NCBI GenBank assembly: GCA_020631905.1
Contig: JACKGQ010000001.1
Coordinates: 485,854 to 549,853 of the forward strand
Reading direction: 5' to 3'
Source: Candidatus Nomurabacteria bacterium
GTDB taxonomy: Bacteria > Patescibacteriota > Saccharimonadia > Saccharimonadales > VXPC01
Length of the DNA: 64,000 bases
Shown: positions 4,590 to 54,071 of the stretch, piece after piece
Numbering within the stretch: position 1 is the stretch's first letter
How the letters are laid out: each line of letters begins with the position of its first letter
The notes under the pieces: model-generated
Database searches by the model: none
What the model was told of the DNA's origin: nothing
What the model saw: the letters and a program-made list of their open reading frames with translations, nothing else
Translations under genes and position numbers: made by a program

Positions 4590-5669
4590 CTAGGCTTTTT
4601 CGGCTAAAGTATAGGTGGCTTTAGCGACTCGTTTGAACTGTGGTTTGCCCTGCAAGTTCAAGAGAATAGTCGTTTCTTTTACCTGGCGCTGTTTAAGTAC
4701 CTGCTTGATAATTTCATCACGGTGCATAGGTTCGCCATTTTTACGCAAAATCTTAGTAATTACATCGGCTACAGTACCCTTGTTGTAACCCCACTCGCTT
4801 AATGCGTAGATACCTCGGCCGATCAACACGAACCGTTTATCCTTGATTAATTCGTTGTGGATCGCTTGGGTAGTTACATCTTTACGCTTGAAGTCGCTAG
4901 ACTTGATTGCTTTGCTGATTTCCGAGAAGTGCATCGGTTTTCCGTCTTCCTGAAGAATCAGATAAATTTTGTCGCGAATATTCTTTGGGTTTACAGTTGG
5001 CCATTTGGTTAAGCCCCATAAACCATTGAGGGTTGAAAGCTGCTTACTTAGCGATGCGAGGCCAGCTACGTGATCTTCGTGCGAAAGTTTCGAGTTGTAC
5101 TTTGCGTGAATCGTCTTCGAATCTGTTGGTTCACCATGTTCTTTGATGGTCTTTACTAGTTCTGCAATATGGCCTTTCATGGCTTTTTCGTCGTGGTGTT
5201 CAAGTAAGCCGGCGCCTAGATAGTGGTTATCATCTTCGTCTACCACTGCTAATTCTGGAGTTAACTTTGCCAAGAAAGCGACTCTGGCTTGGTCTATCTT
5301 GGAGTTATCTTTGGTTAACTTAGCTGTTAAGTCGCTAATCTTACTTGCATTGCCCAAGTCTTTTATAAAGTGTGTTAATGTCTGACTGATTTCTGACATG
5401 TGTGGCAGATTGTTCTCGGCAGCTTTTAGTTTTGCAACCACTGCCTTTTCGAGCTGGCGGACGCGTTCGCGAGTTATACCTAATAATTCGCCAATTTGCT
5501 CTAAAGTTTCTTTACGGTCAAATAGCCCGAAACGGCGAGCGATAATCTCGCGTTCGCGTTCGCGTTCGATAGTGCCTAAAATATCCTTAACTACTGCTTC
5601 GATGTTAAGTTGTTGAGGGGTGGCTGCTGGGCTGGTTTCTTCCATAAAACTCCTAATAATGGCAGTCAT
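4590..5669 (-). CDS. Sigma-70 region-4-like HTH protein with C-terminal HARE-HTH-like repeats
   Basis: IIARRFGL...TLEQIGELLGITRERVRQLEKAVVAKLK is a sigma region 4 signature. No region 2 is visible. Two similar C-terminal modules are present (MHFSEISKAI.., MHRDEIIKQV..). Confidence 0.5.
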   Translation of the reverse strand: MTAIIRSFMEETSPAATPQQLNIEAVVKDILGTIEREREREIIARRFGLFDRKETLEQIGELLGITRERVRQLEKAVVAKLKAAENNLPHMSEISQTLTHFIKDLGNASKISDLTAKLTKDNSKIDQARVAFLAKLTPELAVVDEDDNHYLGAGLLEHHDEKAMKGHIAELVKTIKEHGEPTDSKTIHAKYNSKLSHEDHVAGLASLSKQLSTLNGLWGLTKWPTVNPKNIRDKIYLILQEDGKPMHFSEISKAIKSSDFKRKDVTTQAIHNELIKDKRFVLIGRGIYALSEWGYNKGTVADVITKILRKNGEPMHRDEIIKQVLKQRQVKETTILLNLQGKPQFKRVAKATYTLAEKA

Positions 5670-5824
5670 TTAATAAATAATACCATATTATAAAACTAGT
5701 TTGTTAATAAATCAATACATTTCGTAATAATATCTATTTTACCACACATTGGCAGTCAACACATAATTGTATTTAGCCTAACAACACTTTAGACACATTG
5801 TAAAAAACACATGGTCGACAAATA

Positions 5825-8104
5825 TTATTTTTTCTTGATTGGGCGTCGTTTGCGGCCAGGTTTGGCCTCGGCAAGTAGTTTGGTGGCTTCGGTTTCGGAA
5901 ATATCTTCGGGTTTCTTGTCTTTAGCAATCCGAGCGTTCTTCTTGCCGTCAGTGATATACGGTCCGTATGGCCCACGAAGAATCTTAACTTTACCCCAGT
6001 CGGCAATCACCTTCTTGGCTTCGGCTGCTAGTTTGTCGGCAATTAACTGTTTGGCTTCCTCCAAGCTGATCGTGTGAGGGTCGTGACCTTTGATACTTGC
6101 ATATAACTTGCCAGCTTGGACATAGGGTCCGAAACGACCGATGTTGGCCTTAATCTCTTCGCCATTATCGTCTTGGCCAAGGATGCGTGGCAGCTTGAAC
6201 ATCTCTAGGGCTTGCTCGAGTGTAATGGTGGTTATCTGGGCTTCCTTAGGCATAGGTGCGAATTCGGGCTTTTCTTCTTGGTCTTCGGCCCTGCCCTTTT
6301 GCAACATTGGTCCAAACCGGCCCATTCGGGCAAAGATTTTTTTGCCGTCTTTGGGATCGACACCTAGTTCACGCATGTTACTAACTTCGGCCCGACTAAC
6401 GTCCTGGGCTTTTAAAATGCTTGGGTGGAAGTCTTGATAAAAATCTTTTAGGTAGTTGTTCCAGATGAGTTTGCCGTCGGCAATTTCATCGAAATGTGCT
6501 TCGACACTAGACGTAAATGAATAGTCCATGATCTGAGAAAAATGATCGCTCAGAAAAGTCGTTACCATATTTGCCAGTGGTGTCGGTAGTAGTTTATTGC
6601 TGTCTCCAGCGTAATTCTCCGATTCCTCAGTTTCGGTGATCATGTTATTTTCTAACCGGATTAACTCGACTTGCCTTTGTTTCGGCGCAATATCGGCTTT
6701 TTCGATATAGCCGCGGTCTTGAATTGTGCTGATAGTTGGGGCGTAGGTGCTCGGTCGACCGATCCCTAACTCTTCTAGCTTCCTGACCAAACTTGCTTCA
6801 GAATATCTTGCTGGCGGTTTTGCATATGTTTGGCGAGCTTCGACCCAGTTTAGGGCTAGCGAGTCGCCTTCGCTAATATGCGGCAAAATTACGTCGTCTT
6901 TGGCGCCACCGTAGGCACGCATAAATCCGTCGAACACCAAGACCTCGCCTTTTGCCACAAAGTACTCTGGCCTAGTTTCTACTGGTATGGTCAGCTCTGT
7001 GCGAATTGTTTTGGCTTTGGCCATCTGACTGGCCAGCGCCCGGCGCCAGATAAGGTTATAAATTTTCTTTTGCTGTTCGTCGGCACCGGCTACTTCGTTG
7101 GTAAAGTTAGTCGGCCTAATTGCTTCGTGTGCTTCCTGAGCGCTGCTATTCTTGGTTTTAAAATTTTTTACATCGACATAGTCTTTACCGTATGTTTGCT
7201 CGATATAGCTCGCGGCGGCTGCCATAGCCTGCTTACTTAAATTTGTACTATCGGTGCGCATATAGGTGATATGGCCGGCTTCGTATAGTCTCTGGGCGAG
7301 TTGCATAGTCTGGCGAACGCTATAGCCTAAACGACGTGAAGCCTCTTGCTGGAGCGTACTGGTAGTAAATGGAGCCCCAGGGTTTTTGGAGCCAGGTTTC
7401 TCAGATATTTGGCCAACTTTAAAGCTTCGATTTTGGCACGCCAGCAGAAACTCTCGAGCACTAGTATGATTTGGGAGTTTTTTGTTTAACTCGGCTGGCA
7501 AGCTCGCATCACCTGCACTAAACTCGGCAACAAGTCTAAAATTGGAATCGGCCTCGAAGGCCTCTATTTCTTGTTCGCGCTCAACAATCAGTTTGACAGC
7601 TACCGATTGAACACGTCCAGCGCTCAACCCGGTCTGGACCTTTTTCCAGAGAATCGGGCTAAGCTCGTAACCGACTACCCTATCGAGTACACGGCGAGCT
7701 TGTTGGGCGTCAACCAGTTTTTGATCAACCGTACGCGGGCTGGCAATTGCTGCTTCGATGGCCGGCTTGGTGATCTCATGAAAGACGATTCGTTTGGTAG
7801 TGGCTGGCTGCAAACCCAATGCGTGGCATAAATGCCAGGCGATTGCCTCACCTTCACGGTCTTCGTCGCTGGCTAGAATAACTTCGTCGGCAGACTTAAC
7901 TGCCTTTTTGAGTTCGGCAACCACTTTCTTTTTATCGGGGTTGATTTCGTATTTGGGGGTAAAATCGCCTTCGATATCGATATTCATGCCTTTACTAGGC
8001 AAGTCGCGAATATGCCCGACAGAGCTCATAACTTTATAGCCTGCACCAAGATACTTCTCGATTGTTTTGGCCTTGGCCGGCGACTCGACGATAACTAACT
8101 TCAC
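5825..8104 (-). CDS. topA: DNA topoisomerase I
   Basis: N-terminal Toprim MKLVIVESPAKAKTIEKYLG, the EGEAIAWH motif, active-site region YITYMRTDS, and C-terminal GRFGPY/GPYGPY repeats. Confidence 0.95.
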   Translation of the reverse strand: MKLVIVESPAKAKTIEKYLGAGYKVMSSVGHIRDLPSKGMNIDIEGDFTPKYEINPDKKKVVAELKKAVKSADEVILASDEDREGEAIAWHLCHALGLQPATTKRIVFHEITKPAIEAAIASPRTVDQKLVDAQQARRVLDRVVGYELSPILWKKVQTGLSAGRVQSVAVKLIVEREQEIEAFEADSNFRLVAEFSAGDASLPAELNKKLPNHTSAREFLLACQNRSFKVGQISEKPGSKNPGAPFTTSTLQQEASRRLGYSVRQTMQLAQRLYEAGHITYMRTDSTNLSKQAMAAAASYIEQTYGKDYVDVKNFKTKNSSAQEAHEAIRPTNFTNEVAGADEQQKKIYNLIWRRALASQMAKAKTIRTELTIPVETRPEYFVAKGEVLVFDGFMRAYGGAKDDVILPHISEGDSLALNWVEARQTYAKPPARYSEASLVRKLEELGIGRPSTYAPTISTIQDRGYIEKADIAPKQRQVELIRLENNMITETEESENYAGDSNKLLPTPLANMVTTFLSDHFSQIMDYSFTSSVEAHFDEIADGKLIWNNYLKDFYQDFHPSILKAQDVSRAEVSNMRELGVDPKDGKKIFARMGRFGPMLQKGRAEDQEEKPEFAPMPKEAQITTITLEQALEMFKLPRILGQDDNGEEIKANIGRFGPYVQAGKLYASIKGHDPHTISLEEAKQLIADKLAAEAKKVIADWGKVKILRGPYGPYITDGKKNARIAKDKKPEDISETEATKLLAEAKPGRKRRPIKKK

Positions 8105-8203
8105 GAGTTCGCCTCTGTTAACTTGTTGCTTATGTTAAAAATCATTCGCTGGCTATACTAGCACCGAACACTCGATTGTCAAAACTAGCAGCCAGGCAAT
8201 GGC

Positions 8204-9049
8204 CTACCTAAGGCTCCAAATACCGGCGACGCATACTATTTCGCCGCGGATCTCCATGAGCGTCAGGGCTTGCTGTAGAGCGATGGGTTCTAGGTTTGTA
8301 TTTAGCTGAAGGTTTTCGGTTGCAAGTGGCTGTGCACTCAAGGCTTTATAAATCTTTTCTTCTTCGGGACTTTCAAAGACTAGTCTCGGCTGTTGTTTCT
8401 GCCGAGGCGAGATCTTGAGTGCATCGAGTATATCTGCGCCCGAGGTAATCATACGAGCACCTTGTTTTATCAGCATATTGGTTCCAACAGATAACTGGCT
8501 ATTTATCGGACCAGGTACGGCTAAAACCTCGGTGCCAAGATCGAGTGCAAAACTAGCGGTGTGCAGACTCCCGCTATTAGCCGCCGCCTCAACAATCAAC
8601 ACGGCATCGGCCAGTGCGGCCACAATCCGATTACGTGCGATAAACTGATATTTTTGAGGCAGTGTAGTGCCTGGGTACTCACTAATAAGTATGCCGTTGC
8701 TGCTAATAATGTTTTCGCCTAGCTTCTGATTTGTGCGTGGGTAAATTGTTTCGATACCGCATGGTAGCACTGCCCCAACAGCCAGGCCAACATCAAGACC
8801 GGCCCGACAAGCAAGCCCGTCGACCCCGAGGGCTAGGCCGCTAATGATATTGATTTCGTAACCTCTGATCGAACTGATAAGTTGCTCGGTGACAGTTTTT
8901 CCATAGGTCGATGGACTACGGCTGCCGATGACTGCAAGGGTTGGCTTGGTAAAATCGAATTGACCACGCGCGTATAGCAGTTCTGGTGGATCTGCCAGCT
9001 GGCTGAGCCTTTTGGGAAAATCTGCAAGCGTAAGCTTTTTGACAATCAT
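8204..9049 (-). CDS. dprA: DNA processing protein DprA
   Basis: Rossmann-like core IISGLALGVDGLACRAGL, IVEAAANSGSLHTA, and a C-terminal winged-helix region. Confidence 0.85.
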   Translation of the reverse strand: MIVKKLTLADFPKRLSQLADPPELLYARGQFDFTKPTLAVIGSRSPSTYGKTVTEQLISSIRGYEINIISGLALGVDGLACRAGLDVGLAVGAVLPCGIETIYPRTNQKLGENIISSNGILISEYPGTTLPQKYQFIARNRIVAALADAVLIVEAAANSGSLHTASFALDLGTEVLAVPGPINSQLSVGTNMLIKQGARMITSGADILDALKISPRQKQQPRLVFESPEEEKIYKALSAQPLATENLQLNTNLEPIALQQALTLMEIRGEIVCVAGIWSLR

Positions 9050-9069
9050 AATATTTTATTTAATAAGGC

Positions 9070-9098
9070 TTGACTATAACGCAACTATGTGCTAAACT
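9070..9098 (+). promoter_or_regulatory. Sigma-70-type promoter TTGACT-17-TAAACT
   Basis: -35 TTGACT at 9070-9075, a 17-nt spacer, and -10 TAAACT at 9093-9098. No ORF with an RBS follows. Confidence 0.45.
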
Positions 9099-9104
9099 AG
9101 CGCG

Positions 9105-9448
9105 GTAAATAGTTAATTTACTATTTATAGTACCTTATACCCCCATTCTAACATTTGTTAGGTTGATTTAGAGCGTGCCATTATGTTGCTACCCTCCACA
9201 TACTTGGCTTCTGGTTTGACCAGGAGCGTTCTAAGTCAAACTAATCCCTTTAACCACGCTTCCCCACTCGTTTTGATTGAGTTTGGTGGAAACGTACAAG
9301 CCTTCTGGTGGGCCCTTTGTTACTCTTGCGAGAAAGTAACAACCGTAGGAGCCTTCAAGGTGGGTTGAAGGGTGTATAGATTGGCCCGAAGCTTTCGGGT
9401 CATGTAAAGAGCCTGCAGCGGTGCCCACCCCCTCTGCAGGCTCTTTTT
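9105..9448 (+). ncRNA. Candidate ~340-nt structured RNA of unknown class
   Basis: Bounded by its own promoter and an intrinsic terminator. Contains at least 7 consecutive perfect hairpins of 6-8 bp (e.g. GTTTGAC/GTCAAAC, TTGTTACT/AGTAACAA, CCTTCAA/TTGAAGG, GCCCGAA/TTCGGGT). The only ORF (61 aa, 9183-9368) has no RBS and its composition does not look protein-like. Confidence 0.35.
9408..9448 (+). terminator. Intrinsic terminator
   Basis: 11-bp stem AGAGCCTGCAG/CTGCAGGCTCT, 15-nt loop, followed by TTTTT. Confidence 0.75.
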
Positions 9449-9688
9449 ATGTTTAATCTAACTCTAGCAACAGGTTTCTGATATTTACCAGAGTAATTGA
9501 TAATTATGTGCAATTTGATAACCAATAGTTACTACTAACCAGTTTTGCTTTCTATGCCATCGGCTAAACCTTAAAACATTTGTAATCATGCAACAATATG
9601 GTACAATATGTGGGCTATTCTCAATTCACGTTGAGACTCCTGATGGGAAAGCCTCATTGGAGTATTTGGTAGCAAGGGAGGGTCAGTA

Positions 9689-10279
9689 ATGACCCAGAAT
9701 CTTTCGGATCTACAAGTTGATCCGCGGTTGTTAAGCACGCTGGCAGAGATGCTCAAGCGGATTGGCAACGGCGGTCTCGACTCGCGTGTTGCGGCTGTGC
9801 ATCTTCAGGCCTTGCTCGAAGGCAAGCCTTCGAGTGAATCTTCGTTGGCCGATAGCGCGGTCGGCAAGTGGGAGGGAGTTGTCGTGACTGAGAGCTTTCT
9901 GAGCCAGACGATGGTTTATAAGGGCCAGCTGCTCAAGCGCCACCGAAATGGTGGTGGCTGGGTGCCGGCCGAGCAGTCGGAGGGCGATGAGTCGAAGCCT
10001 TATGTGGACGAAACGGCCTATGTCGGCCCGTTTGCGATGGTCTTCGGCAACGCTCGAGTCTTCGGCAACGCTTTGGTCTGCGGCAACGCTCGAGTCTTCG
10101 GCAACGCTCGAGTCTTCGGCAACGCTTTGGTCTGCGGCAACGCTGAGGTCTCCGGTGAAGCTCGAGTCTCCGGCAACGCTCGAATCTCCGACAACGCTCG
10201 AGTCTGCGGCAACGCTCGAGTCTTCGGCAACGCTGGGGTCTCCGGTGGAACTAGTCTCGAAACTGGCTCTCACGGCTAG
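9689..10279 (+). CDS. Left-handed beta-helix (hexapeptide-repeat) protein, YdcK-like
   Basis: RBS AGGGAGG. Eleven consecutive hexapeptides of the GNARVF/GNALVC type follow a GGGWV...YVDETAYV lead-in. About 60% GC against a ~45% backbone. Confidence 0.6.
   Translation: MTQNLSDLQVDPRLLSTLAEMLKRIGNGGLDSRVAAVHLQALLEGKPSSESSLADSAVGKWEGVVVTESFLSQTMVYKGQLLKRHRNGGGWVPAEQSEGDESKPYVDETAYVGPFAMVFGNARVFGNALVCGNARVFGNARVFGNALVCGNAEVSGEARVSGNARISDNARVCGNARVFGNAGVSGGTSLETGSHG
10046..10243. repeat. Tandem array of 11 x 18 bp (in-frame hexapeptide units), with a near-perfect higher-order duplication
   Basis: Unit GGCAACGCTCGAGTCTTC. Several units are identical at the DNA level, and the block cttcggcaacgctcgagtcttcggcaacgctttggtctgcggcaacgct occurs twice. 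Confidence 0.9.
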
Positions 10280-10353
10280 GGCGGTATGCCGCCGCCACCC
10301 CCCCGCCACATCGATGATGGCGGGGGTTTTGCTTTGTAAAATTTTTACTGGTT

Positions 10354-11586
10354 GTGCTTGCGTTAATGTTACGGTTTGTCCAGAATAGTTCCGATATGGG
10401 CGAAAGATACAAACCAGTTCCGAAAACCGACTCTGACAAGGATTTAATCCTCCCAGGTGTTTATCCAAGTACAAATCGCAAGATTTCGCCACTGTGCAAT
10501 TACCGGACCTTTACTAGACGTGGACGCGAAGAAGCAGAAAGGTTTGACATTGACCGTCTCGGTGCGGCGTTTGGACTGGCGTCTGGGCCCGAACATAGTT
10601 GCTCTGGGGCAACAGAATTTTGTGCAAACGACTGCTATTCAATCGAAGCCGAACGCACTTTCAGCGGAACTGGCAACAGCATGCGCCGTAATTACGAGCA
10701 ACTTAAGGCCGCCAGTTTCGAACAGATGCGCGCGACTTGCTCGGCTATCCTCAATGGCTACAATCTTCGATGCGAGCGAATGGGCGTGCCAGCAGACAAG
10801 CGAATCTTCCGCTGGCATTGGGCTGGCGATATTTTTAGCCGCGACTACGCCCGGGCAATTGCCGCTGCCTTTAATGAGAACCCAACGGTTATGGGGGCGA
10901 TCTATACGAGAGTATATCAACCCGACTTAAATGTTGTGCCTGAGCTAATAAAAGCCCCTAATTTACGCGTTTTTTTAAGTGTCGACCCCGATAACCTCGA
11001 GCGGGCAGCCGAGGTATATCGAGAATATCATCGATCTGTCAGGTTGGCATTTTTAGGCCAAGATTATCACCACGGGCGCACACTAGCCGAGAAGATGGCA
11101 GGTTTGGGCGTTCCAGACCTAGACGTTACCCAGCTTGTCGAAGCCAGCATCGACAGCGATGGCCATATGCCATATTCGTATCCAGATTTATTGTACTGCC
11201 CTGAGCTATACCCGTACGGCAAAAAAAGGCGCGATGGCAGTCGAAGTTTTCTGAGCCTAACAGTTCCTGACTATGTTGAACTCAAAATTGAACAAGCAAA
11301 TGCAAGAGCAGAAGCACGAGAAGTCGACATTAGTCGAGTTAAGCATCGTGGAGCATGTTCGGCTTGTATGGCATGTTACAGCCATTCGGCACTCCACACT
11401 CGTCATGTAATCTTCGTTAAGAATAAAGAGATGCATAGTCAAAAAGGAACTCCTGGTGGTTTGTATCAAGCGGCTATGAGTGAAGTACTTGATGTGCCGG
11501 TGGAGATTGCCAGACGGCGACGACCAGCCAGCTTGGCGGTGGCCAATCAGGTAAGCCTCGAAGACCACCCTAGCCTGTTCGACTGA
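10354..11586 (+). CDS. Hypothetical protein, possibly a phage GP88 / Gp37-Gp68-like Cys-motif protein; start codon uncertain
   Basis: CSGATEFCANDCYS near the N-terminus and CSACMACYS near the C-terminus. GC-rich like its upstream neighbour. The family assignment is from memory only. Confidence 0.3.
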   Translation: MLALMLRFVQNSSDMGERYKPVPKTDSDKDLILPGVYPSTNRKISPLCNYRTFTRRGREEAERFDIDRLGAAFGLASGPEHSCSGATEFCANDCYSIEAERTFSGTGNSMRRNYEQLKAASFEQMRATCSAILNGYNLRCERMGVPADKRIFRWHWAGDIFSRDYARAIAAAFNENPTVMGAIYTRVYQPDLNVVPELIKAPNLRVFLSVDPDNLERAAEVYREYHRSVRLAFLGQDYHHGRTLAEKMAGLGVPDLDVTQLVEASIDSDGHMPYSYPDLLYCPELYPYGKKRRDGSRSFLSLTVPDYVELKIEQANARAEAREVDISRVKHRGACSACMACYSHSALHTRHVIFVKNKEMHSQKGTPGGLYQAAMSEVLDVPVEIARRRRPASLAVANQVSLEDHPSLFD

Positions 11587-11673
11587 GGTCATACCGGCTA
11601 ACTAACCAAAGCTTTTAGTGTTATTCCTAGCTCCGTTGTCTGGGTTGCATAAGGGTGTTAAGATGAACCTATC

Positions 11674-12528
11674 TTGAGTCATCATAGAATATACGTCGTT
11701 ATGCTTGGCATATTTTTGGTCGGCACCGCTGCCGCTGCAGGCTTATATTTGAGTGCAGACGATTCCACTGCCCTACAACAAACAGCCATAAATAGCGATC
11801 AGCAAACGCCGAGCAAGACTAGCCAGACGGTTCAGTCGGCACAGACAGATAACAAAGAAGCCGAATCAACCTACCCAGAGGTCGACAAGGTGGTATACAA
11901 TACAGACCTAGGCGTGTTCAAATGTAAACCTTCATGCTTCTTAGCTGCGGTCGATAAACAACATTCCCTGCCAGAAAGTTATCAGCCAGAAGTCCAAGTA
12001 ATTGCCAGCTATGGCTCGAGCAGATTAGTCAAAGATGCGGCCGATGCACTGCTCGAACTGATCGACTTTCTAGAGGCAGAAGGTGTAAAAGTCGAACTGA
12101 CCTCTAGCTATCGTTCTTTTGCAAACCAGCAGTCAACTTTCAACCGCTGGGTCAAAATACTTATGGAACGAGATGGCCTGAGTCAGGCAGAGGCACGTAT
12201 CCAGGCAAATACTTTTTCGGCCCTACCAGGCCATTCCGAGCATCAACTTGGCACAACTGTTGATATCAACACCGTAGGAGCCGAGCCATTTAATATCGAT
12301 GACAATCGGCTACTCTATGGCTTACTCGAAAAATATGCGTATCGGTACGGATTTGTTATCAGCTATCCAGAAGCAAAAGAAGATCTAACTGGTTATGTGC
12401 ACGAGCCCTGGCATATACGTTACTTAGGTATCGATTTGGCTACAAAAATCTACAAAACTGCTTACCTCGATCCTAGCTCGACTATGTTCTCGACAAAGTA
12501 TTTACGCGATTACGGATTTAGCGACTAG
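11674..12528 (+). CDS. VanY/M15-family D-Ala-D-Ala carboxypeptidase (membrane-anchored)
   Basis: SYRSFANQQSTF, LPGHSEHQLGTTVDI and EPWHIRYLG form the zinc-peptidase M15 signature. An N-terminal TM helix is present. Confidence 0.8.
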   Translation: MSHHRIYVVMLGIFLVGTAAAAGLYLSADDSTALQQTAINSDQQTPSKTSQTVQSAQTDNKEAESTYPEVDKVVYNTDLGVFKCKPSCFLAAVDKQHSLPESYQPEVQVIASYGSSRLVKDAADALLELIDFLEAEGVKVELTSSYRSFANQQSTFNRWVKILMERDGLSQAEARIQANTFSALPGHSEHQLGTTVDINTVGAEPFNIDDNRLLYGLLEKYAYRYGFVISYPEAKEDLTGYVHEPWHIRYLGIDLATKIYKTAYLDPSSTMFSTKYLRDYGFSD

Positions 12529-13157
12529 GCTACACTAATTGTCTGCGGGCTTAGGTTGGTGGCCGTTGCCTCGCCCAAGATGCTGGCTGCCTCGTTGATA
12601 ATCATCTTAAGCTTTTCTAGTTGATCGGTAGCAAAGTTTTGGAGCACAAAATCGGCTAAATCGATTTGAGCTGGGGTTTTTGGGCCAATGCCCACACGGA
12701 TGCGTGTAAAGCTGTCCTGGTTGTGCTGGAGTAACGATTTAAGCCCATTGTGGCCGGCAGCTCCCCCGGCTTGCTTAATCTGGAGTTTACCAAAATTGAT
12801 GTCGACTTCGTCGTAGACGACAACCATTTCCTCGGGGTTAAGCTTAAAAAAGTTAAGTACCGCATGCACAGCCTCTCCACTATTGTTCATGTAAGTTGTT
12901 GGTTTGACTAAGATTGTTCGAGTGCCACCAATGTCACCACTGGCTAATACACATTTTAGATCTTTCTTTTCGGTCCACTGTAGATTGCTGCTGGCAGCGA
13001 ACCTATCGAGGACCATAAAACCGACATTGTGCCGATTGCCAGAATGTTCTGCGCCTGGGTTGCCAAGGCCAACAAAAACTCGCGTGCGCCCAAAACCAGT
13101 GGTGTAGATCATTGCCACTTCTGTTTCTTCTTCGGTCTTTTTTACAAATAGTGCCAT
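12525..13157 (-). CDS. pth: Peptidyl-tRNA hydrolase
   Basis: VGLGNPGAEHSGNRHNVGFMVLD and GHNGLKS motifs. The start may be the internal Met at MIYTTG. Confidence 0.9.
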   Translation of the reverse strand: MALFVKKTEEETEVAMIYTTGFGRTRVFVGLGNPGAEHSGNRHNVGFMVLDRFAASSNLQWTEKKDLKCVLASGDIGGTRTILVKPTTYMNNSGEAVHAVLNFFKLNPEEMVVVYDEVDINFGKLQIKQAGGAAGHNGLKSLLQHNQDSFTRIRVGIGPKTPAQIDLADFVLQNFATDQLEKLKMIINEAASILGEATATNLSPQTISVA

Positions 13158-53566: not shown

Positions 53567-54071
53567 CTGGTGTTTCCTCTCTCCCCCGGAGGGGGTTGGC
53601 GGAAGCCGGTGCTTCACCCATTGGGATGACCCGCAGGGTTCGACTTGGACTTACCTTTGCAGGTGTCCCCAAGTCTACCTCGACGTTTCTTACCTGAAGT
53701 GTACGCGTCGGGGTTGGGTTGCCTTTACGGCGGATACTACACACCAAGATGTGTACTATTCGCCGCAAAGACTTATTAGCCAAACGGCTAAAGATGTTGC
53801 TAGCTTGTTAAACAACATAAGTGTGGTCTGCTTAGTCTGCGTGATTAAATTTGAATTGTCTCGCAAGTTAAGTGATGTACTTCACACTTAAGTGGGTTAG
53901 AATTTACACAATCTTCAAATATTTGTCAACATTATTTTCATAAAATCAACATATGGTGTCATAAAACTGCTTGAAACGCTAGATGTGTTGATTTTTACAA
54001 TCTTTTATTGACGCAAGAACTTTCAACAAAATTTAGCTTAGTTTAAACTGTCTCCAATTTGGAGGGTAGCA

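Follow-up and report, generated by a model that had tools for sequence, protein, structure and literature searches.

We describe a gene for a structured noncoding RNA (ncRNA) in a 64,000-nucleotide stretch of DNA (hereafter the window) from a genome registered as Candidatus Nomurabacteria bacterium and classified by GTDB in the Saccharimonadia (assembly GCA_020631905.1, contig JACKGQ010000001.1, positions 485,854 to 549,853). Positions 9105-9448 of the forward strand very probably constitute a stand-alone ncRNA gene, the window copy of an undescribed structured RNA family of about 330-430 nucleotides (nt) in a large environmental clade of Saccharibacteria. The segment has its own promoter and an intrinsic terminator, the open reading frame (ORF) within it is not conserved, and relatives carry copies of the segment. 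As the best explanation as a whole, with a probability of about 0.4, we propose that this stand-alone RNA acts in trans. The specific part of the proposal, that invariant and unpaired C-rich elements may bind G-rich RNA of the Shine-Dalgarno type, is put forward tentatively.

Promoter, terminator, conservation and fold

An earlier reading made from the letters of the window (the sequence-only reading) had described a promoter (TTGACT and TAAACT, 17 nt apart), a strong terminator (an 11-bp stem and five T) and at least seven local hairpins next to dprA. The promoter was found as described, with a TG extension at 9090-9091 in addition, and the description of the terminator was about right; the stem has 10 bp and is followed by TTTTT. 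The components of the gene are as follows.

9070-9075 (+): −35 hexamer TTGACT; at this position 74 copies have TTGACA and 6 have TTGACT (80 of 80)
9090-9098 (+): extended −10 element TGcTAAACT (TAAACT, 9093-9098), with a 17-nt spacer to the −35 hexamer
9105-9448 (+): predicted RNA gene of about 344 nt, its start placed about 7 nt past the −10 element and its end at the end of the U tract
9409-9418 and 9434-9443 (+): intrinsic terminator stem GAGCCUGCAG/CUGCAGGCUC, which A-U pairs could lengthen to 13 bp
9444-9448 (+): terminator U tract; at least five T lie within 9 nt past the stem in 68 of 80 copies

The promoter, of the σ70 type (TTGAC[A/T] with a TAnnnT −10 element), is kept in all 80 copies, with TAnnnT and a 17-nt spacer in 78 and the TG extension in 79. 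The terminator, whose stem is directly followed by TTTTT (9444-9448), was absent from the output of our promoter and terminator scan because its 15-nt loop exceeds the maximum loop of 8 nt allowed there. From the conservation of the promoter and the terminator we infer a discrete transcript of the forward strand. The minimum free energy (MFE) fold of this strand has about eight hairpins, in agreement with the number expected earlier, and a predicted energy of −128.9 kcal/mol (z = −5.85); none of 100 dinucleotide shuffles was as stable. The corresponding value for the reverse strand was z = −4.08.

The closest relatives of the window DprA protein (at most 51% identity) belong to metagenome-assembled genomes (MAGs) of Saccharibacteria. 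Using nhmmer, we found the element directly upstream of dprA, and divergent from it, in the loci L001-L006, L008 and L009, and as a truncated copy in L007 (E = 1e-16 to 1e-27). A metagenome scan with the 18-mer GYGGTGCCCACCCCCTCT, taken from the loop of the terminal hairpin P10 (see below), matched at least 120 stretches, and among the matches listed 79 metagenome loci had full-length copies (386-521 nt including the promoter). A scan of IMG/VR used an independent bait, a 16-mer from the hairpin P4, and gave 34 matches, roughly the number expected by chance; 33 of them lacked the remainder of the RNA, and the only true full-length copy, L212, had an identical P10 loop. The element was thus found in nine Saccharibacteria species genomes, at least 79 full-length metagenome copies and one IMG/VR contig (L212), at least about 90 in all. 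The family is defined by an alignment of 78 sequences, a consensus structure and a covariance model (CM) of the 5' domain. This model, R1 (173 positions, 26 bp), aligned to 9104-9260 of the window with 125.5 bits and gave the independent L212 copy 139.3 bits. The family profile aligned to 9105-9452 in nhmmer (E = 4.6e-59), and this was the only copy in the window.

The region thus proved to be conserved, a point on which the sequence-only reading would have been given up had it failed. The nucleotide identity of the element is about 70-75%, with long invariant blocks, whereas the adjacent DprA proteins share 40-51% of their amino acids. In the alignment of the DprA-derived loci (A1; DprA 43-51% identical), the invariant blocks are the promoter, ACCUUnUACCC, UUCUAAC..GUUAGAUUGUUUUAGAGCG, AGUUGUUACCCUCCAC, AGCGCUCUAAAACAAACUAACCCCUUUAAC, GGUGGGUUGAAGGGU and GCGGUGCCCACCCCCUCU. 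In the MAFFT alignment of 78 copies (A2), about 48 columns are invariant and about 70 near-invariant, and whole loops and junctions are among them. Unless stated otherwise, the counts below refer to these 78 copies.

We derived the helices from a mutual-information scan, RNAalifold and inspection. The model comprises a 5' hairpin (P1), a three-way domain (P2, P3 and P4), a long-range helix (P5) closing a lineage-variable 3' domain, an optional hairpin (P9) and a terminal hairpin (P10), and the 5' strand ACCUU would probably pair beside P5 and form a pseudoknot (PA). The elements in the window copy are listed below.

9102-9131 (+): P1, the 5' hairpin of the MFE fold; its sequence is variable and the hairpin is kept
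9132-9136 (+): 5' strand of PA, ACCUU; the proposed pseudoknot partner is AAGGU at 9357-9361 (RRGGU in the family)
9137-9145 (+): C-rich junction AUACCCCCA, nearly invariant in A1 and A2 and unpaired in the model
9147-9162 (+): P2 hairpin UCUAAC/GUUAGG (UCUAAC/GUUAGA in the family), 98% paired, with double changes in two pairs
9165-9175 (+): 5' strand of P3, GAUUUAGAGCG, paired with 9227-9237
9183-9201 (+): P4 hairpin, a 4-bp stem with the 11-nt loop UGCUACCCUCC (9187-9197); the family consensus of the loop is UGUUACCCUCC
9209-9225 (+): P3b, a variable hairpin of the MFE fold within the P3 domain; by inspection, a hairpin of variable sequence lies here throughout A2 and A3
9227-9237 (+): 3' strand of P3, CGUUCUAAGUC, partner of 9165-9175
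9237-9245 (+): junction CAAACUAAU (consensus CAAACUAAC), nearly invariant
9246-9255 (+): 5' strand of P5, CCCUUUAACC, paired with 9363-9372
9256-9356 (+): variable 3' domain of the type found in the window and 15 other copies (16 in total)
9357-9372 (+): G-rich block AAGGUGGGUUGAAGGG, with the 3' strand of PA (9357-9361) followed by the 3' strand of P5 (9363-9372)
9383-9403 (+): P9, an optional hairpin present in 55 of 78 copies
9407-9446 (+): P10, the terminal and terminator hairpin, whose loop (9419-9433) lies inside the invariant GCGGUGCCCACCCCCUCU

The sequence-only reading had proposed an alignment of the syntenic intergenic regions, and this alignment revealed strong covariation. We counted pairs on A2, which was not fitted to the structure. 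In the 79 base pairs of 15 helices, 93.2% of the cells are paired, compared with 81.6% after shuffling and 37-50% when the partners were slid by ±1-3 columns. Double compensatory changes occur in 54 of the 79 pairs (36.4 shuffled) and in 648 cells (181 shuffled), and the covariation score was 0.323 (0.136 shuffled, 0.05-0.08 slid); none of 500 shuffles reached the observed covariation values. G-U pairs are frequent (for example, UG in 67 sequences at columns 357/583 and GU in 55 at columns 494/559). Conserved G-U pairs are A·C mismatches on the other strand, and therefore fit the forward strand only.

Most of the covariation support comes from P10, P9, P3, P1 and the 3'-domain helices H8-H10. 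Double changes were found in eight of ten pairs of P10 (14-40 changes each; 99.6% paired), nine of ten pairs of P9 (91% paired), eight of nine pairs of P3 (96.8% paired) and all five tested pairs of P1 (for example, AU in 60 and GC in 9 sequences at columns 12/43). P5, with the family form CCCUUUAAC(U)/(G)GUUGAAGGG, is 98.6% paired and shows C-G to G-C changes in ten sequences, U-G to U-A or C-G changes and single full compensations. In the P4 stem, 96.8% of the cells are paired, and AU is replaced by CG/UA. Little variation is seen in PA and in most of P2 and P4, which are consistent with the model, weakly tested as they are; PA is paired in 90% of the cells, with one-sided changes only (U-G to U-A), which is consistent with the pairing and does not prove it. 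PA is called a pseudoknot because it crosses P5.

Some of the elements differ among the relatives. The P2 loop has insertions of 10-70 nt in A2, and the 62 copies outside the window type have a different, covarying set of 3'-domain helices (H6-H10). The family consensus of the P3 strands is GUUUUAGAGCG/CGCUCUAAAAC; an alternative, extended P3 pairing of GUUAGAUUG with CAAnCUAAC, in which the junction 9237-9245 takes part, has ambiguous support. Since the metagenome set was collected with the P10 loop as bait, the invariance of the loop in that set is circular; the loop is also invariant in the nine DprA-derived loci and in L212, which was found with a different bait. Note that the consensus of the P3 5' strand, GUUUUAGAGC (9165-9174), equals what we take to be the first 10 nt of the Streptococcus pyogenes Cas9 CRISPR repeat, presumably by coincidence. 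The window copy reads GAUUUAGAGC there, no cas genes were found among the conserved neighbours or the flanking ORFs examined (6000-13000), and a variable guide-like segment is absent.

Possible modes of action

The family has four conserved C-rich segments against one G-rich block, which is used by PA and P5. Left unpaired and invariant are the P4 loop (UGUUACCCUCC), the P10 loop (GCGGUGCCCACCCCCUCU) and the junction UACCCCC, and the P4 and P10 loops are unpaired C-rich hairpin-loop motifs in the covariation-supported model. Within the P4 loop, ACCCUCC is invariant save in one sequence and resembles the anti-Shine-Dalgarno sequence. A pairing of the P10 loop (CCCACC) with GGUGGG was rejected; four copies lacking GGUGGG still keep the loop, and GGUGGG is already engaged by PA and P5, so that this pairing is unsupported.

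In the proposed mechanism, the C-rich loops, held on a rigid scaffold, would mimic the CCUCC tail of 16S rRNA. They would base-pair with G-rich sequences of the Shine-Dalgarno type and sequester ribosome-binding sites, as the loops of RNAIII, RsaE and RoxS do, and the strong promoter of constitutive type would make the RNA abundant. The C-rich loops of Staphylococcus RNAIII and of small RNAs of the RsaE/RoxS type sequester ribosome-binding sites, and RNAIII has 514 nt and 14 hairpins and encodes hld. The likeness lies in the stand-alone gene with promoter and terminator, the multiple hairpins, and the unpaired C-rich motifs in apical loops that are able to pair with G-rich Shine-Dalgarno regions. 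In contrast to these regulators, the present RNA has no encoded peptide, is conserved at the class level, has invariant loops of 11-18 nt that extend beyond a seed, a long-range helix and a probable pseudoknot, and has no conserved target found; sequence or CM similarity to them is also absent.

One candidate target in the window was examined. The P4 loop UGCUACCCUCC is an exact complement, at 11 of 11 positions, of GGAGGGUAGCA, which abuts the ATG of ORF 54072. GGAGGG lies upstream of only three of 81 ORFs, and about 0.03 matches of 11 nt were expected by chance. The sequence GGAGGGTAGCA at 54061-54071 (+) is the ribosome-binding site of this ORF, which has 534 codons for amino acids and a weak match to the ParB helix-turn-helix domain. 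We rejected ORF 54072, the sole candidate examined, as a conserved mRNA target. When complements of the loops were sought in the flanks of about 130 loci, the RNA gene was the only match, and the search was uninformative.

Several observations weigh against action by base-pairing in trans. In four homologs of ORF 54072 on other contigs the extended match to the P4 loop is absent and only an ordinary GGAGG(G) is present, so that the 11-nt match may be due to chance or specific to the strain. The whole 11-nt and 18-nt loops are invariant, and about 120 positions are invariant or near-invariant although DprA is only 40-50% identical. Such invariance is more typical of RNAs with protein contacts or tertiary contacts; Shine-Dalgarno pairing would constrain only about 5-6 nt. 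Base-pairing small RNAs are rarely conserved at the class level, and since loops and junctions are invariant at this divergence, a role in a ribonucleoprotein (RNP) or in tertiary contacts fits better than a simple base-pairing small RNA. Finally, the PA pseudoknot is without any double compensatory change.

These points lead to the strongest rival, which we consider a real possibility short of a probable one: a housekeeping-type RNP or a ribozyme-like RNA, whose compact pseudoknotted fold would use the invariant loops and junctions as surfaces for protein binding or tertiary contacts. The RNA would serve as scaffold or catalyst together with a protein partner, and would belong with OLE, raiA, ROOL and GOLLD or with RNase P and transfer-messenger RNA (tmRNA). 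The number of invariant columns, the multi-helix architecture with strong covariation and a probable pseudoknot, the near-consensus promoter in all copies, and the single copy at a fixed chromosomal position amid housekeeping genes all speak for it, and the variable 3' domain and the optional P9 look peripheral to a constant core, as in RNase P. However, no co-localised partner is apparent, since pth, dprA and topA are syntenic even in lineages that do not have the RNA, and there is no similarity to Rfam families. The RNA is also absent at the locus in animal-associated or more distant Saccharibacteria, and is therefore not universally essential.

The proposed trans-acting binder of Shine-Dalgarno sequences draws some support from outside the Saccharibacteria. 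In MAGs of Moraniibacteria (L042, about 5490-5750, −) and Falkowbacteria (L010, about 5450-5740, −), the gap between pth and dprA contains an RNA candidate on the opposite strand that runs from promoter to terminator. In L042, the candidate folds as a 6S-like rod (z = −9.25) that includes the hairpin CGGU-UACUCCUCCUU-ACCG, a 4-bp stem with CCUCC in the loop, and the L010 candidate (z = −4.7) also has CCUCC in a hairpin. Neither matched Rfam, the nhmmer profile or the CM; the two candidates may be analogues of the Saccharibacteria RNA in position alone, or very remote homologs of it. A Shine-Dalgarno/anti-Shine-Dalgarno role is favoured because both candidates also display CCUCC.

According to another and improbable explanation, the P4 loop is a decoy of the 3' tail of 16S rRNA that titrates a tail-recognising protein (the KH domain of Era, a 3'-end nuclease or a modification enzyme), with a link to the control of ribosome biogenesis. 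The P4 loop GUUACCCUCC resembles GAUCACCUCC, which we take to be the Era-binding 3' end of 16S rRNA, and the L042 analogue carries CCUCCUUA, presumably identical to the canonical 16S 3' terminus. The support is one of resemblance; the 16S rRNA of the host lies outside the window, and the explanation leaves the P10 loop and the other invariant elements unexplained. All readings other than the trans binder, the RNP or ribozyme and this decoy are, even taken together, similarly improbable.

A combined picture can be drawn, which we regard as rather unlikely to hold in full. The RNA would be a housekeeping-grade RNA of Saccharibacteria of the compact, pseudoknotted RNP/ribozyme class, whose anti-Shine-Dalgarno-like loops engage Shine-Dalgarno sites of mRNAs or 16S-tail factors such as Era, with possible diverged counterparts between pth and dprA across Patescibacteria.

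Apart from the family, two near-identical phage contigs in IMG/VR (L197, about 1900-2010, −; L211, about 9370-9480, −) have GGAGGGTAAC and, about 70 nt downstream of it, GTTGTTACCCTCCAC, after which come AAGGAG and ATG. As an inverted repeat, the two sequences could mask a Shine-Dalgarno-like sequence in the 5' untranslated region (UTR) of a phage; they have no relation to the remainder of the RNA family.

Comparison with known RNA classes

The sequence-only reading had placed the element outside the known classes and had called for a search of Rfam. The search matched no family to the element, and this placement stands, now with a covarying fold in the relatives. At the gathering threshold, Rfam 15 (4227 families) identified only two tRNAs in the whole 64 kb, and at E <= 10 the 901 nt around the element gave only terminator-like noise (for example, Thr_leader with 19 bits). 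Among the relatives, no family was found in seven large and 16 small loci or in L118 (3150-3650), and five further loci gave only noise. OLE, GOLLD, ROOL, raiA and HEARO had no Rfam 15 match on either strand. In the searchable full-text literature, queried with motif strings as well, we found no description of this RNA. As both the model-based and the feature-based tests for known families failed and no description was found, we treat it as a new RNA family.

It is very unlikely that the element is a highly divergent universal RNA (RNase P RNA, tmRNA, signal recognition particle (SRP) RNA or 6S RNA) missed by the standard models. Its length of 330-430 nt is akin to that of RNase P RNA and tmRNA, and the adjoining pth, a gene related to ribosome rescue, might hint at tmRNA. 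The RNase P RNAs of the candidate phyla radiation (CPR) are diverged and sometimes fall below the Rfam thresholds, yet are detectable with RF00010 (PMC8172020), and for circularized genomes including Saccharimonadia SRX3348993_bin_93 an RNase P RNA was reported with this model (PMC8172020). Neither RF00010 nor RF00011 matched at the gathering threshold or at E <= 10 in the window, the 16 small and seven large loci or L118, whose copy of the element is thus without an RF00010 match; RNase P, tmRNA, SRP and 6S models likewise had no match at E <= 10 in the window and more than 20 relatives. With ARAGORN, tmRNA was detected neither in the window nor in 60 loci that carry the element.

The sequence-only reading had seen no motifs of RNase P, tmRNA or SRP RNA, and in the 78 copies these hallmarks (GGAAAGUCC, ACAGAA..CGGCUUA, T-loop with CCA, SRP domain IV) are indeed absent from conserved positions, being scattered and unaligned in 0-14 copies. 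For CR-I of RNase P (GGAAAGUCC), GAAAGTC occurs exactly in none of the copies and GGAAAGTCC with at most one mismatch in two; CR-V (ACAGAAnnCGGCUUA) with at most three mismatches occurs in three, none at a conserved column. A T-loop-like motif is present in 7-14 copies at unaligned places, CCA is present at the aligned 3' end in none, and a conserved reading frame for a tag peptide was found in no frame. The SRP domain IV motif GGAAGCAGC with at most one mismatch occurs in one copy, and Rfam gave no SRP match. There was also no match to RF00013 (6S), and the fold is multi-branched with the long-range P5, not the rod of 6S RNA. The two ends of the RNA do not pair with each other as those of RNase P RNA do, and instead form the local covarying hairpins P1 and P10.

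Likenesses to some of these classes nevertheless remain. RNase P RNA, including the diverged CPR forms (PMC8172020), shares the length, the strong promoter, the single copy and an architecture in which peripheral helices vary between lineages around a constant core, but the present RNA lacks the P4 sequences of CR-I and CR-V, a P1 that pairs the ends, and a match to RF00010 or RF00011. Like 6S RNA, the present RNA is stand-alone and probably abundant, with a housekeeping-type promoter, and a rod-like candidate occupies the same position in the Moraniibacteria locus L042; in contrast to 6S RNA, which is a rod with a central bubble, it is multi-branched, ends in local hairpins and has twice the length. 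With the raiA motif, OLE, ROOL and GOLLD it shares a length of more than 300 nt, an intricate covarying fold, many invariant nucleotides, restriction to a lineage and the lack of a cis-regulatory character, but it does not match their models, is hosted by Saccharibacteria/Patescibacteria and lies in the context pth-dprA-topA; it is also smaller than OLE, ROOL and GOLLD. By analogy, the RNA most resembles the C-rich-loop regulators RNAIII, RsaE and RoxS in its possible mechanism, and raiA, OLE and ROOL in its character.

A cis-acting element (a riboswitch or 5' leader of the downstream gene, a long 3' UTR or the terminator of pth, or a region that regulates dprA) is no less remote an explanation than a divergent universal RNA. 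In many loci, 12-100 nt separate P10 from the stop codon of pth, for which it could serve as a terminator too, and the start of dprA is about 20 nt from the −35 hexamer of the RNA gene, so that both promoters must overlap. However, the conserved promoter of the element points away from dprA, in nearly all loci whose sequence extends far enough the downstream pth lies on the opposite strand, and the inserted genes differ between loci. Because pth is convergent in nearly all loci, the RNA is not a leader of a conserved gene. ORF 9689 of the window has its own promoter-like site and is in a non-conserved insertion, and no riboswitch or leader in Rfam matched.

Finally, a small protein gene (the 61-aa ORF 9183-9368, +, or the 65-aa ORF 9231-9428, −) or a chance arrangement of hairpins can be dismissed almost entirely. 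Both ORFs are present in the window, but neither has a Pfam match, as is true of all ORFs within the element, and the covariation excludes chance. The sequence-only reading had seen no credible ORF in the approximately 340 nt and had named conservation of the 61-aa ORF as grounds for abandoning the RNA; its start codon is retained in one of 78 homologs, it is free of internal stops in three, and the length of its region is divisible by three in 22, about the random third. The longest ORFs of the homologs have medians of 38 aa (+) and 46.5 aa (−) and share no common frame, and coding potential was therefore rejected.

Genomic neighbourhood and significance

The location next to dprA noted earlier is correct, and can be refined: the element lies on the strand opposite to pth and dprA, and its place between these two genes is conserved. 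In tblastn searches with the window proteins the gene order is fixed, with pth, dprA and topA in one orientation and the RNA gene between pth and dprA in the other, and it was seen in the large majority of the 78 loci with enough upstream sequence. In the relatives, dprA lies 41-230 nt upstream of the RNA on the other strand with topA beyond it, and pth usually 12-650 nt downstream, also on the other strand. The neighbours in the window are as follows.

8204-9049 (−): dprA, divergent from the RNA gene (Pfam DNA_processg_A, E = 2.3e-66)
12525-13157 (−): pth, convergent; directly downstream of the RNA in most relatives and here behind a three-gene insertion

The start codon of dprA (9049, −) is 21 nt from the −35 hexamer of the RNA gene (9070) and, in most relatives, about 49 nt from the end of the −10 element. 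Because the dprA start adjoins this −35 hexamer, the dprA promoter must overlap the RNA promoter or sit inside the RNA gene. Upstream of dprA no Shine-Dalgarno sequence can be seen, and the arrangement suggests a leaderless dprA mRNA or promoter interference.

The insertion between the RNA and pth (9689-12528, +) encodes a 196-aa β-solenoid protein of the YdcK type (12 tandem 18-nt repeats), a GP88-like protein of a phage family and a VanY D-Ala-D-Ala carboxypeptidase; in most relatives this place is empty or taken by different genes. The G+C content rises to 0.60-0.64 across 9800-10300, inside the insertion. The block looks like an insertion hotspot or horizontally acquired cargo, and neither flanking direct repeats nor an integrase was seen for it. 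The 3' end of the RNA as an attachment site of a phage or integrative element was rejected, since no direct repeat brackets 9689-12528 and the IMG/VR matches to P4 are about as many as expected by chance.

In more distant Saccharibacteria (DprA 32-37% identical), a gene of about 477 aa abuts dprA and no copy was detected, and nhmmer and R1 found no copies near dprA in the other Saccharibacteria or other phyla examined. One MAG of a distant Saccharibacterium (L040, 1-262, −; DprA 36% identical) has the promoter layout TTGACT-17-TGCTATAAT upstream of dprA, followed by a hairpin, GCACCU, UAUUACCUCC and AACCCCUAUAAC. This resembles a diverged copy ended by the contig edge; the R1 score is only 8.4 bits (E = 1.4), and homology is not established. 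In a Patescibacteria MAG (L004, 3066-3148, +), a cyclic-di-GMP-II riboswitch (54 bits; gathering score 53.5) lies about 2.5 kb from the RNA copy.

The element is a genuine ncRNA of Saccharibacteria that is widespread, complex in structure and, so far, undescribed, and no structured RNA specific to Saccharibacteria was found in Rfam 15 or the searchable literature. The family would improve the annotation of CPR genomes and could mark a subclade of Saccharibacteria. The genomes of Saccharibacteria and other CPR bacteria are tiny, with little room for non-essential sequence; despite this, the clade keeps an RNA gene of 330-430 nt whose promoter is near-perfect, whose loops are invariant and whose multi-domain fold covaries. 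RNAs so conserved and complex (RNase P, tmRNA, OLE, raiA) have repeatedly proved to be ribozymes or central RNPs. If the RNA is indeed a housekeeping RNA that engages translation, it would represent a new RNA-based layer of control of translation or ribosome biogenesis in these ultra-small epibiotic bacteria.

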